A DNA stretch of 64,000 bases from Candidatus Poribacteria bacterium (GTDB lineage Bacteria; Poribacteria; WGA-4E; WGA-3G): assembly GCA_965198235.1 (NCBI GenBank), contig OZ240248.1:3200001-3264000 (forward strand), in the 5' to 3' direction. Made by a program: the position numbers and the translations under genes. Of this stretch, positions 16,065-53,876 are shown one piece after another. The notes under the pieces are model-generated. The model saw nothing but the letters and a program-made list of their open reading frames with translations. It had not been told where the DNA came from and made no database searches. Positions within the stretch are counted from its first letter, which is position 1; every line of letters begins with the position of its first letter.

Positions 16065-16165
16065 CAGGACTTACGCAAATTGCGCACACGGTGGTAGATT
16101 TTGCCTTTCAAACCCCCTAAATCCCCCTTATCAGGGGGACTTATGAACGCGCTGCGTAAATCCTA
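16065..16165. mobile_element. MITE family A (CAGGACTTACGCA ends) carrying CCCCCTTATCAGGGGG hairpin
   Basis: CAGGACTTACGCA ... TGCGTAAATCCTA; flanked by direct repeat ACTCA (candidate TSD); related copy at 52497. Confidence 0.75.
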
Positions 16166-50347: not shown

Positions 50348-51982
50348 TTAGAAAGCGGTTTTTCGGAGCGGTTCGGACATCAACCAGCTGATTACGTTGA
50401 CGATATCGTCCTGCCGTTCCTGTAGCATCACTTCGATGAGTGCAGGTTTTTCTGCCGCGAGTGCGTCCCGCAAAGTATCCTTGAAATCTCCCAAATCCTC
50501 GACCCGCTTGGCATACGCACCGAATGATTTTGCGAATTCAACAAAATTCGGATTAAGCAGGTCTGTGTCGATTGTGCGTCCCTCACACCCCTGCTGTTGA
50601 GACCCTTTAATCGCTGACAATGCCCCGTCATTCACCACGATTGCCACGACGTTGATACCGTATTTCATAGCGGTCGCCATTTCCACAGCTCCCATCAGAA
50701 ATCCGCCGTCGCCGCTGAAGCAGATAACAGGTCGATCGGGATGAGCGACCTTCGCGCCGATCGCCGCAGGATACGCATGTCCTAATGCTACACCGATATT
50801 CGGATAGAGGAACGTCCTCGGATCGTAGATAGGAAATTCAGCGAAGGAGGCATAGCCGAGGGCATGGACATCAATCGCGTAGATGGTGTCTCGTGGGAGT
50901 ACATCTTGTAGTTCGTGAATGACCGGCAACGGAGGCTGTGCATCGAATTGTGTTCGGAGTTGCGCCAGGGTCTCGTTCCACCCGTTTTCACCCGGCGCAA
51001 CGTCCTCAATAAGTGCCTGCAGCGTCAGTTTCAAATCCCCGACGACACCTATGTCGCACGGATATTCAAGCCCGATTTCGCCCGCGTCTTCATCAATTTG
51101 GATGAAGGGTTGGGGTAGTTCCAGACTCCAATTTCGGGTATCGATAGAGGTAAAACGCGGTCCGATACCGATTAAACAATCAGCACGTTGGAGTGCCTCG
51201 CGTCCGAGATAACCGTAGCAAATTTGGAGTGCCAACGGATGGTCCTCCGACAAAACGCCTTTTGCATTACGGGTGACGATGACAGGTGCATTCAGCTTCT
51301 CGGCGAGGAGACGTAACTCGTTTCGGGCATTTGAATGAAAGACAGCGGAACCGGCGAAAATCAGGGGCATCTTGGCGTTGCGAATCGTTTCGACTGCGGT
51401 ACTCAGAGATGTATCGTCAGGTGGAGATAATTCGGCACGCTCGACACGCGACGGAATCCGGACATCTCCTTCTCCAGTGACAACATCCATCGGGAATTCC
51501 AGCACAGTAGGTCCCGGTCTCCCGTTGCGCATCGCTTTAAAGGCGTTTTCAACGACGACGGGAATCTCAGCGACAGTGTGTGCGATGGCGCAGTACTTCG
51601 TAAGCGACTCGAAAAACCGCATCTGATCCAAACCGTGGAACATTTTGCTTGGATGTTTGCTGTAGAGGCTGGAATCGCTCTGTCCCGTAATCAGCAGAAC
51701 CGGTGCGCAATCGGTGAACGCCTCTAAAATTCCGGTTGACGCGTTGCTGGCACCCGGTCCCGGCACAGTGATAGCGACACCGACTTCCCCTGTTGCGCGA
51801 GCGAAACCGTCTGCCATCTGCGTCGCTGCATATTCATGCCGGACAAGGTAGTGATCGATTGTGCCTTTACCGCGTCGCAGCAGCGCATCGTAGATTTGGA
51901 TGTTTTGGGTGCCGGGCATCCCGAAAACCGCCGAAACTCCCTGTGCTTTCAAGCATTCAATGATTATATCTCCGCCTTTCAC
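50348..51982 (-). CDS. Thiamine-pyrophosphate-binding enzyme (acetolactate synthase-like)
   Basis: VFGMPG, RHE, GPGASN, GDGGF...VVND TPP motif. Confidence 0.9.
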   Translation of the reverse strand: MKGGDIIIECLKAQGVSAVFGMPGTQNIQIYDALLRRGKGTIDHYLVRHEYAATQMADGFARATGEVGVAITVPGPGASNASTGILEAFTDCAPVLLITGQSDSSLYSKHPSKMFHGLDQMRFFESLTKYCAIAHTVAEIPVVVENAFKAMRNGRPGPTVLEFPMDVVTGEGDVRIPSRVERAELSPPDDTSLSTAVETIRNAKMPLIFAGSAVFHSNARNELRLLAEKLNAPVIVTRNAKGVLSEDHPLALQICYGYLGREALQRADCLIGIGPRFTSIDTRNWSLELPQPFIQIDEDAGEIGLEYPCDIGVVGDLKLTLQALIEDVAPGENGWNETLAQLRTQFDAQPPLPVIHELQDVLPRDTIYAIDVHALGYASFAEFPIYDPRTFLYPNIGVALGHAYPAAIGAKVAHPDRPVICFSGDGGFLMGAVEMATAMKYGINVVAIVVNDGALSAIKGSQQQGCEGRTIDTDLLNPNFVEFAKSFGAYAKRVEDLGDFKDTLRDALAAEKPALIEVMLQERQDDIVNVISWLMSEPLRKTAF

Positions 51983-52236
51983 GTATTAGTCTCCTTTGTG
52001 TTCTCTGAGGAAATTTTCTAACCACGCATCGGGATCATACCCCAGTCGGCGTAATAGTTGGCAACCGACACGTTTTAGAAAATTTGGGATAAGATTAAAG
52101 AGTTTAAGTCGCCAATTCATAATTGCTAAAATATACGAAAGTTTGAACAATTCGTGTTGTGTGCAAGTCACATTTTCAAGGGGTTATGTATTTTTCTGCG
52201 AGTTTCTTATGCGGATGGAAATCGTAGAAAAATACT

Positions 52237-52386
52237 GCACTCCAGCGGAGTGCTATGTCTATAGAAAACCAATGCCCAAGAGCCCGCACTCCAGCGGAGT
52301 GCTATGTGTAATGCCCCACATACCGCTCCGCTGGAGCGGAAGTCTCGGTACATTTTGCTGCTATAGACATGTTGCTCCGCTGGAGC
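52237..52386. repeat. Four REP-like hairpins arranged direct-direct-inverted-inverted
   Basis: GCACTCCAGCGGAGTGC at 52237 and 52286; GCTCCGCTGGAGC at 52325 and 52374; both pairs spaced 49 nt. Confidence 0.85.
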
Positions 52387-52496
52387 AAAGAGGTTTTCTG
52401 TAGCGTGTTGGGTCCTAAGTTTGTTGCCTTGAACATATCTGATGAATCCATTTCTTGTATTGAACTCACCTTAGAAAAAAATTGCCCAAACTTTAG

Positions 52497-52717
52497 CAGG
52501 ACTTACGCAAATTGCCTGGAAAAGCAATATATTTCGTCAAAAAAGTTGTTATTTCAGTGATTTAACCCCCTAAAGAATCAGAATCAACGGTATGAAGCCC
52601 ATATGGGCTTCCCCGGGTATGAATGCGAATCAACGGTATGAATGCCGTATGGCATTCCCCGTATGGCATTCCCCGCCCCTTATCAGGGGGACTTTAAGAG
52701 GAAGTGCGTAAGTCCTA
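52497..52717. mobile_element. MITE family A copy with nested insertions
   Basis: CAGGACTTACGCAAATTGC ... TGCGTAAGTCCTA; same internal CCCCCTAAA..CCCCTTATCAGGGGGAC cassette as 16065. Confidence 0.78.
52575..52675 (+). mobile_element. Three nested copies of a 35-nt hairpin micro-element
   Basis: Intact units at 52581-52615 and 52627-52661; a split third unit spans 52575-52675. Confidence 0.8.
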
Positions 52718-52748
52718 TTTAATAAAATATCAGGATTACAAATCCCTC

Positions 52749-53876
52749 CTACAAAAAAGCCTTGCCTGTGGTTTTATCGAAAAAGTGCATCCGTTCTGGA
52801 ACAAATGTGACGTAAAGGTGCTGTCCAATTTCCGCTTCAAAGTTGGGGGCTGTGCATGCTTTAAGAATCGTATGCGTGCCGGATGTATCCGTTCCGAGGG
52901 TCAGTTCGACGATTGTTTCTGCACCGAGGGGTTCACTGCTATAGACTTCAGCCTGAAAAGCATTGGGTATCGACTGATGACTGACAATAACATCCTCAGC
53001 GTGCGTGCCGAGGATAAAATCTTTGTCTGGATCGTTGTCGTTTACAGTTTTAGCGATCTTGGAGTCCTGAATTGCGACTGAATTGTCTCCGCTGAGATTG
53101 CTCGCTAATGTCAGATGGAGTTCCCCGTTAGTGCTGGAGATGTCGCACGGGATGCAATTCATACTCGGATTACCAATGAAACCAGCGACGAATAGGTTAA
53201 CGGGGTGATTATAGATGTCAGCGGGGGTTCCCATTTGCTGGATTCTGCCTGCTTCGAGGACAGCGATCCTGTCTGCCATTGACATCGCTTCGATCTGGTC
53301 ATGTGTCACATAGAAGGTGGTTGTACCGAGTTCACGTTGCCGCCAACGGATTTCCGCACGCATCTCGGCCCGAAGTTTCGCATCGAGATTGGAGATCGGT
53401 TCGTCCATAAGGAATACTTGGGGACGACGGACCATTGCGCGTCCGAGTCCGACGCGCTGCGTCTCACCGCCGCTCAACTGGTTCGGTGTCCGCATAAGCA
53501 GATGCTCGATGTGAAGCATCTGTGCAATATCTCTGACACGTCGGTCAATCTCCTCAGCGGAGAGTTTTCTTGGATGCAGGGGGAACGCCATGTTCTCGTA
53601 AACGCTTAGATGTGGATAGAGGATATGCGACTGGAAGACAAAAGCCACATCGCGTTCGGCGGGAGTCTTGTCGTTAACACTAACATCGTCCAGATAGATA
53701 GTGCCTTCTTCGGGTTTATCCAATCCAGCGATACAACGAAGCGTGGTCGTTTTTCCCGCACCTGTCTGACCGAGAAGCACAAAGAATTCCTCGTCTTGGA
53801 TATCGAGGTTGATGTCGTTGAGTGCGATGAGATCGCCAAACCGTTTTGTAATGTTTTCGAGTCGGACTGTTGCCAT
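52749..53876 (-). CDS. ABC transporter ATP-binding protein (MalK/UgpC-like)
   Basis: GQTGAGKT, LSGGE, LMDEP, VTHDQ, TOBE C-terminus. Confidence 0.92.
   Translation of the reverse strand: MATVRLENITKRFGDLIALNDINLDIQDEEFFVLLGQTGAGKTTTLRCIAGLDKPEEGTIYLDDVSVNDKTPAERDVAFVFQSHILYPHLSVYENMAFPLHPRKLSAEEIDRRVRDIAQMLHIEHLLMRTPNQLSGGETQRVGLGRAMVRRPQVFLMDEPISNLDAKLRAEMRAEIRWRQRELGTTTFYVTHDQIEAMSMADRIAVLEAGRIQQMGTPADIYNHPVNLFVAGFIGNPSMNCIPCDISSTNGELHLTLASNLSGDNSVAIQDSKIAKTVNDNDPDKDFILGTHAEDVIVSHQSIPNAFQAEVYSSEPLGAETIVELTLGTDTSGTHTILKACTAPNFEAEIGQHLYVTFVPERMHFFDKTTGKAFL

Follow-up and report, generated by a model that had tools for sequence, protein, structure and literature searches.

The window, by which we mean the whole 64-kb stretch of DNA analysed here, contains an intergenic MITE between two minus-strand genes (50348-51982 and 52749-53876), and the same inverted repeats, AGGACTTACGCAAATTG and GCGTAAGTCCT, also border other cassette-bearing copies in the genome. 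The cassette in question is a short sequence, CCCCCTAAATCCCCCTTATCAGGGGGAC, that occurs uninterrupted at a single place in the window (Table 1); in the MITE it is interrupted by a nest of small units. Positions 52575-52675 are made up of one 35-nt unit (GAATCAACGG-hairpin-CCCCG) that is broken twice by two further units. When its three pieces are joined, the outer unit lacks the AC of its positions 7-8 and the CG of its positions 20-21, and when the whole nest is removed, what remains is the intact cassette minus TC. The sequence-only reading from which we started had laid out the nest in this way, and on re-reading the pieces, the 2-nt gaps and the cassette TC all proved correct to the base. 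It had also noticed that units A and B differ in the hairpin with the pairing kept, which agrees with the compensatory changes between their stems, GAATGCC/GGCATTC and GAAGCCC/GGGCTTC. The intact unit pattern is matched in the window by units A and B only, and by none of 100 dinucleotide-preserving shuffles. In an Rfam search of the window a tRNA was the sole match at the gathering score; microRNA matches over the neighbouring REP hairpins (E 0.06-0.44) were weak and were set aside as chance.

Table 1. Positions of the nest, its host MITE, the empty reference cassette and the neighbouring repeat family.
Feature	Position	Strand	Remark
Host MITE	52498..52716	+	terminal inverted repeats AGGACTTACGCAAATTG ... 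GCGTAAGTCCT
Target cassette, left arm CCCCCTAAA	52566..52574	+	
Outer unit, piece 1 (GAATCA, unit positions 1-6)	52575..52580	+	positions 7-8 (AC) replaced by unit B
Unit B, intact, 35 nt	52581..52615	+	stem GAAGCCC/GGGCTTC
Outer unit, piece 2 (GGTATGAATGC, unit positions 9-19)	52616..52626	+	positions 20-21 (CG) replaced by unit A
Unit A, intact, 35 nt	52627..52661	+	stem GAATGCC/GGCATTC
Outer unit, piece 3 (TATGGCATTCCCCG, unit positions 22-35)	52662..52675	+	
Target cassette, right arm CCCCTTATCAGGGGGAC	52676..52692	+	CCCC(C)/GGGGG hairpin begins directly 3' of the replaced TC
Empty reference cassette CCCCCTAAA-TC-CCCCTTATCAGGGGGAC	16113..16140	+	within another MITE, about 16066-16164
TATAGACAT repeats, window	52323-52339; 52362-52388; about 52263 (-); 45859 and 45908 (-)		
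TATAGACAT repeats, locus L148	2700-2810; 3385-3450		

The unit is built from a 7-nt head (GAATCAA), a short CGG/CCG helix, the tetranucleotide GTAT, a 7-bp hairpin and a CCCCG tail. As single-stranded DNA, units A and B fold with -7.0 to -7.3 kcal/mol (z -3.6 to -3.9), and in the predicted minimum-energy fold the CGG/CCG helix lies below the hairpin and the GAATCAA head is left single-stranded. It is worth pointing out that most internal positions, GTAT included, were fixed by the search pattern, under which GTAG variants would escape collection, so that only the ends and the variable part of the stem are informative. In the stem, all four variable pairs covary (UA/GC/CG and others) among 51 distinct 35-nt sequences, 98.8% of the stem cells are paired, and the covariation score was reached by none of 500 shuffles. 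G-U pairs also occur, with UG in 5 cells, and the 7-bp stem carries a loop of 4-7 nt. The ends of the unit (GAATCA.../...CCCCG) form no inverted repeats, and its 5' start is variable, with G, A or T in first place and GAATC in some copies against N-AAATC in others. Across 52 G-start and 40 A-start contexts the left flank contains at most 0.5 bits of information and the right flank about 0.9 bits, a preference for GG, with nothing further beyond. The shared ends on which the sequence-only reading had built its case are constant and sharp over all of these contexts. Its further idea, that a net gain of 33 nt would preserve reading frames and permit in-frame insertions, found no support: three of 184 units lie in a frame that runs open for 140 nt in both directions, and not one of these three is convincing or coding-like. 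A recurrent variant of the 5' stem, with TG changed to GGTTCT (GAA-GGTTCT-CCGTGTGGCATTC), was seen in the copy at C1 2081038 and at loci L079, L159, L171, L174 and L180; it weakens the hairpin and could be a footprint or a tiny insertion.

The genome that contains the window comprises 5.17 Mb in two contigs. A search with the 16-nt head, allowing up to two changes, returned 23 matches, of which 15 are true unit heads and 8 are unrelated sequences; the copies of the unit number 13 with the full pattern and 2 in altered form. All 15 heads occupy the identical site, in the identical orientation, in the same type of cassette. This cassette is filled in 11 of 41 cases, seven times with a single unit and four times with a triple nest, and its exact empty form is present in 23 copies. 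It is found in several MITE subfamilies and also outside MITEs. Filled and empty members occur side by side in at least four of the subfamilies, and the triple nest is present in two subfamilies which both have empty members too. The triple nest at C1 2081038 shows additional changes in both inner stems. None of the other target types is filled in this genome, be it the 51 REP loops, the 13 GGAGT-TC sites or the two CGCAT-TT sites. With all copies in one cassette and the other targets empty, spread of the host MITE or recombination between cassettes could explain this genome taken alone. The host MITE or exchange between cassettes may have contributed much to the spread in this genome, and the unit may be inactive here. 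Outside MITEs the cassette CCCCCTAAATCCCCCTTATCAGGGGGAC lies at C1 420795, 3565557, 1363337, 4054407 and 1277843, often preceded by AACCCC(C) heptamer-like repeats, and it may itself be a small dispersed element. The second contig, C2 (43,879 bases), has the G+C content of the chromosome (48.2%) and contains neither unit nor cassette.

The sequence-only reading had proposed a search for further copies in the genome and in related MAGs, and they were found in both. In a scan of the genus and order, 22 of the 24 further genomes from the genus carried the unit, and none of 16 genomes from other genera of the order did. A wider scan of the phylum found it in 96 of 176 genomes and in two of the 31 Poribacteria genera searched, both in one family. 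In the genus of the window (g1), it is carried by 54 of 64 genomes plus the window's own and is missing from the remaining 10; in the second genus (g13) all 40 genomes carry it. No copy was found in seven genomes from the four other genera of the family, and one of 64 genomes from other families of the phylum has the unit. Over the 176 genomes, a genome has between 0 and 420 copies. In public genome contigs the unit occurs in at least 125 stretches, and 79 of 80 among the matches listed are titled Poribacteria MAGs. A scan of metagenomes added 42 stretches, and a scan of viral contigs gave one match, in the same context as locus L001. The relatives supply 51 G-start and 56 A/T-start contexts with distinct flanks, about 100 in all. 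The unit is a genuine dispersed element.

The exchange of 35 nt for 2 nt was examined in empty counterparts, defined as exact matches elsewhere to the 9+9 nt flanking a unit; a 10+10-nt version of the comparison agrees. Among the 51 G-start contexts, 17 have such paralogues. In 16 of these a gap of 2 nt is the most frequent, the sole exception, L099, having a right flank that is shorter by one C. The replaced pairs are TC (in the cassette and in GGAGT_CCTCC), AC (in the unit head), CT or CG (in the unit loop), CT (in two REP loops), TT and TA. For the unit head, the missing pair is AC as read from 48 intact reference heads (6 contexts). Since paralogues can mislead, orthologues were sought at two unique loci. 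The first lies beside dnaA and is filled in genome G018, where it reads ATTGGT[unit]GGGTTGC with the right flank GGGTTGCTA. The site is kept in 7 of 11 orthologous loci from other species, all seven of which read GGT-TC-GGG(T/G), and the other four diverge there. The second locus is filled in G007 and G022 as TAGA[A-start unit]GGTGTT with the right flank GGTGTTGAC; its orthologues read TAGA-TC-GGTGTT in 6 of 7 cases and have CC in the remaining one. At both loci, as in the cassette, the replaced TC directly precedes a hairpin stem on its 5' side. These two unique loci are real insertions, with no flanking homology, no duplication and exactly 2 nt lost. The constant rule of 35 nt in and 2 nt out, first read from the window, therefore holds in filled and empty paralogues as well as at two unique orthologous loci, and no target-site duplication was found at the 17 paralogue-checked contexts or at the two orthologous sites. 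The replaced pair is mostly TC or CT, and it belongs to a small hairpin, either at its 5' foot or within its loop. The favoured targets are the MITE cassette, REP loops, the unit's own junction of head and helix, and the loop of the unit's own hairpin.

The A-start units that lie in repeats often show a loss of one target nucleotide and a gain of N+35, as in the change from AAATCAA-C-GG to AAATCAA-G[unit]GG, and no A-start paralogue with two extra bases was found. An attempt to derive one common A-start rule from paralogues failed; the lone unique A-start locus follows 35 in and 2 out. In the comparison of orthologues at locus L111, the unit site lies inside variable heptamer repeats. Near local position 1690 of L205-L218 there is a stretch of GTTNTCN heptamers (GTTATCA, GTTGTCG) with a species-dependent copy number. 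A unit of the A-start kind lies in this stretch, and G022 has a nested pair there.

Nesting is common among the relatives. Among 174 intact units, 48 are nested in another unit at its head site and 4 at its loop site, an independent loop-site case being L003 in G022, where CT was replaced. Locus L035 has three GAATCA heads followed by an intact unit. Two-level composites occur in 16 distinct contexts, the interrupted outer units retain both of their ends, and the outer variant GAA-GGTTCT-CC recurs in three contexts, among them the CGCAT host repeat and a cassette-like site. These recurring contexts, together with the 46-nt unit spacing in species G021 and the presence of the composite in two MITE subfamilies, suggest that composites travel as blocks; they would either stay mobile themselves or ride along with the host repeat. 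As nested composites recur across contexts and species, the triple nest of the window probably came to its place as a single block within the MITE, either by inheritance or by movement. It would have arisen earlier and have entered the MITE as one block of 101 nt, via the TC site of the cassette or by recombination between cassettes. The sequence-only reading had counted three insertion events at the nest; the shared ends, the orientation and the 2-nt loss stand, and what has to be given up is the need for the events to have happened at this locus, since the composite is also found in two MITE subfamilies of this genome and in another species. A related family, seen in other Poribacteria at L013, L014, L033, L095, L124, L137 and other loci, has the head AAATCAAC in common with the unit but not the hairpin, which is CCAAATCAACGCC-AAATGCGC-loop-GGCATTTGGCG; insertions of the 35-nt unit into its loop are frequent.

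The junctions were also checked in independent sequence. Logan contig X18 (record 19) is exact over 52365-52593, contig X19 (record 26) spans 52365-52655 with one differing letter and 6 gaps, and contigs from X16 and X17, which may derive from the source sample, span 52365-52579. Logan contigs are short and confounded by repeats, and they cover the left junctions, not filled versus empty alleles. As such, the junction check that had been proposed succeeded for the left junctions, which are reproduced by contigs of other runs, and the right-hand junctions are not among the contig pieces listed. The same triple nest stands at four places in the genome, and the 46-nt spacing of units was seen twice in species G021. 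The nest in the window is no artefact of this assembly, a possibility that the sequence-only reading had raised itself. Contigs of X16, X17 and X19 also join about 52120/52135 to 52733/52759, skipping about 52121-52758, so related strains may lack the REP-plus-MITE block of the intergenic gap altogether.

We consider it likely that the window contains three nested copies of a 35-nt non-autonomous element, inserted in one orientation with exact ends and a loss of 2 nt, and moved in trans. The earlier description of a minimal, non-autonomous, REP-like mobile unit fits well with the fixed ends, the orientation-specific insertion and the GTAT at the foot of a covarying 7-bp hairpin. Since the unit encodes nothing, a protein acting in trans must move it, and this protein would recognise the unit ends or the hairpin. 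Our best guess, by analogy, is an enzyme of the HUH Y1 type, which is favoured by the REP-like build of the unit and by its hairpin targets; such a single-strand nuclease/transferase would cut the target twice, 2 nt apart. In known Y1 transposition the target is cut once and no bases are lost, so the 2-nt loss would need two cuts.

The genes for such enzymes have not led us beyond this guess, which the sequence-only reading had also made. No unit lies within 700 nt of the six Y1 genes of the genome. The Y1 family PF01797 is found in all 24 genomes of the genus (24 of 24), and most other genera have it too, so that it gives no discrimination by the presence of the unit. In genome G017 a Y1 gene (159 aa, IS200/IS605-type) adjoins arrays of the unit. 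The repeats that flank it, however, are of a different REP family, TATAGACAT-hairpin repeats in inverted orientation, and the units sit inside these flanking repeats. The protein scores 29 bits with the RAYT model, for which the cut-off is 80, and 73.8 bits with the IS200 model. Its family, that of the Y1 gene at locus L148 beside the G017 unit arrays, was rejected as the enzyme because it is also present in genomes and genera without units, and a search of the high-copy genomes G116, G132, G156 and G118 did not recover it. The expectation that the unit's hairpin would flank a RAYT or TnpA gene was thus disappointed, the one Y1 gene beside units being bordered by the other REP family. The IS91-type family PF04986 gave matches in none of 112 genomes, in a search whose control was likewise empty. 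The TATAGACAT repeats consist of TATAGACAT and a hairpin of 7 bp closed by a GCT loop, as in TTGCTCC-GCT-GGAGCAA, and number 29 copies in the genome by a strict pattern. Around the G017 gene they are inverted and REPtron-like, and in other genomes their loops are targets of the 35-nt unit. Two IS200/IS605-type copies in the genome, at C1 4381488-4381841 and 4792784-4793137 (-), have GAAATCAACGCTGCG about 70 nt downstream of tnpA; it has the 9-mer AAATCAACG in common with the unit head, a match which may be chance.

Orientation relative to replication was compared in four complete genomes, with strand counts made by hand from tables and origins placed by dnaA only. In G018 there are 44 minus and 3 plus copies in one replichore and 3 plus and 2 minus beyond it; the corresponding counts are 19:17 and 21:20 in G007, 27:18 and 21:15 in G102, and 8:8 and 12:15 in G127. 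A bias is therefore seen in G018 and in none of the other three, and replication-strand bias was dropped as a sign of a lagging-strand mechanism on account of this inconsistency. In the window's genome the GC skew is too weak to show where the terminus lies. The 52 copies in G018 (G018:C1 0.56-3.15 Mb) consist mostly of one identical stem variant, GAAGTGC/GCACTTC, nearly all on one strand and in one replichore. In the metagenome loci examined this main variant is nested in a host repeat, and the one-variant set looks like a recent burst.

Could the unit be a mere passenger, inserted once or a few times long ago and since multiplied by its host repeats or by gene conversion? Much in this genome would agree with such a history: all 15 unit heads sit in the same cassette, the other target types are empty, and identical filled MITEs have been duplicated, such as those at C1 3405751 and 2091289. 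The uniform copies of G018, nested in a host repeat in the loci examined, could be read in the same way. A passenger would, however, hardly be expected at the two unique, non-repeat loci, which have orthologous empty sites and flanks without homology to any donor. The roughly 100 distinct flank contexts, the coexistence of filled and empty members in at least four MITE subfamilies and the range of 0 to 420 copies between related genomes speak against it as well, and we hold it to be very unlikely that the unit has had no mobility of its own. An origin at this one locus, through slippage, through tandem duplication within hairpins or through an error of assembly, is extremely unlikely. Some stretches of the nest can indeed be taken for short direct repeats, such as the two tandem copies of GTATGGCATTCCCC, but the same nest stands at four loci of the genome and in another species, and its left junctions are reproduced by independent contigs. 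Moreover, the three-insertion rule is valid at many unrelated sites, where slippage would need several unrelated duplications.

There are two other explanations. The hairpin could be copied from RNA, reverse-transcribed at a nick in the target, with a second-strand cut 2 nt off that would produce the 2-nt loss. Such a route would account for a constant loss without duplication; the variable first bases would fit untemplated or variable 5' ends, and the G-U pairs in the stem and the lack of a consistent replication-strand bias in orientation are in line with it. The 3' end of the unit, however, has no tail, and there is neither a promoter nor a transcript nor a linked reverse transcriptase on record for it. 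We know of no short retro-elements of such size in bacteria, and regard copying from RNA as unlikely. The unit could also be kept by selection because its copies are of use to the cell, by whatever means they are moved; it would then be a functional module that binds a protein, forms an RNA hairpin or modifies terminators. Its hairpin is maintained by compensatory change, the units lie in intergenic DNA, and several of them stand directly 5' of terminator-like hairpins, as at the dnaA-side locus with GGGTTGC-TACG-CAACCC and a T-rich stretch. Covariation is equally expected, however, for a hairpin recognised by an enzyme, and a module kept for its use is difficult to reconcile with 0 to 420 copies among relatives, with its lack in 10 of 64 other genomes of the same genus and with self-nesting that has no evident function. 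Selection of this kind is quite unlikely to explain the family.

Returning to a mobile element moved in trans, the closest known kinds are, by comparison of their build, the REP/REPIN elements and the small dispersed repeats of Nostoc. Like the unit, REPs and REPINs are extragenic noncoding hairpins of 20-40 nt with a tetranucleotide at the foot, compensatory stems and a high copy number that is very uneven among relatives. There are several differences. The tag at the 5' foot is GTAG (or CGTC) in REPs and GTAT, which the search pattern fixed, in all unit copies collected; the unit has an extra conserved head of 9-10 nt; and a REPIN is an inverted doublet, whereas the units are single or nested in the same orientation, with facing inverted pairs at 3 of 137 loci (L024, L041 and L076) in an informal tally. 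Nor is there a counterpart of the REPtron, a RAYT gene flanked by its own repeats, as no RAYT gene with flanking units was found. Of four defining features of REPs that were tested, the unit thus has one, the short hairpin, and lacks the tag, the REPtron and the doublet. GTAT is absent from the degenerate tags given in the accessible part of PMC3733652 (GYAG, GYRG, GTRG, GTMG and GTGG), and the accessible parts of PMC3733652 and PMC3479197 make no mention of a constant 2-nt target replacement for REPs. REPs inserted within small palindromes are described in the former, the example being GTAG-23 in T. roseum (PMC3733652). In IS200/IS605, cleavage is directed by a guide of 4 nt that lies 5' of the hairpin foot, and in RAYT it is GTAG that leads to cutting at CT (PMC3479197).

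The IS200/IS605 elements and their miniature derivatives with hairpins (PATEs) resemble the unit in their subterminal hairpins, the lack of target duplication, the oriented insertion and a single-strand route that favours foldable DNA. These elements, however, have two different hairpin ends and insert 3' of a fixed tetra- or pentanucleotide without loss of target, whereas the unit has one hairpin, a 5' flank with at most 0.5 bits, a loss of 2 nt and strand bias in one of four genomes. Classical MITEs, of which the host element in the window is one, are likewise small, noncoding, repeated and moved in trans; they end in inverted repeats, duplicate their target and mostly exceed 100 nt, while the unit has neither of the two features and measures 35 nt. 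The SDR4-6 repeats of Nostoc, which Elhai et al. are said to have described in 2008, are reportedly 21-27 nt long, held to be mobile, and found within other repeats, MITEs and one another. They differ from the unit in host (cyanobacteria as opposed to Poribacteria), in length and in sequence, and the 2-nt rule would be less new if these repeats also show a fixed target loss. Outside bacteria, the R2 retrotransposon leaves a 2-bp target deletion by target-primed reverse transcription. It shares with the unit a small, fixed 2-bp target deletion without duplication; unlike the unit, R2 is eukaryotic, autonomous, kilobase-sized and specific for rDNA. The attC sites of integrons have RYYYAAC ... 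GTTRRRY at the ends of an imperfect hairpin of 57-141 nt. The unit's head, AATCAAC, agrees with RYYYAAC at 6 of 7 positions, but a 3' GTTRRRY partner is missing and the unit has only 35 nt.

No description of the 35-nt element was found in the limited literature searched, and the unit is among the smallest mobile elements seen. A fixed replacement of 2 nt of the target lies outside the products of known bacterial transposition chemistries, and as no such chemistry yields it, the unit may report an undescribed variant of strand transfer. One could go further and see in it a new class of ultra-small (35-nt) mobile DNA, which replaces a dinucleotide at the foot or loop of a hairpin, tolerates cargo, depends on an undescribed bacterial enzyme or chemistry and is active in two genera of uncultured sponge symbionts; we put this forward tentatively, as a possible reading that we hold to be rather doubtful. 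The chemistry would then be that of a single-strand transferase making two cuts 2 nt apart, or reverse transcription.

How REP-like and very small repeats spread is a long-standing question, on which direct evidence is scarce because true empty sites are seldom at hand. The unit family supplies sharp ends, dozens of site types, two clean pairs of orthologous filled and empty sites, and hot spots of self-insertion. Its contrast in copy number, from 0 to 420 over about 105 genomes, is well suited to a search for the enzyme by phylogenetic profiling and to the design of single-stranded substrates. For the annotation of Poribacteria genomes, the unit accounts for many short indels in intergenic hairpins and for nested arrays that break short-read assemblies.
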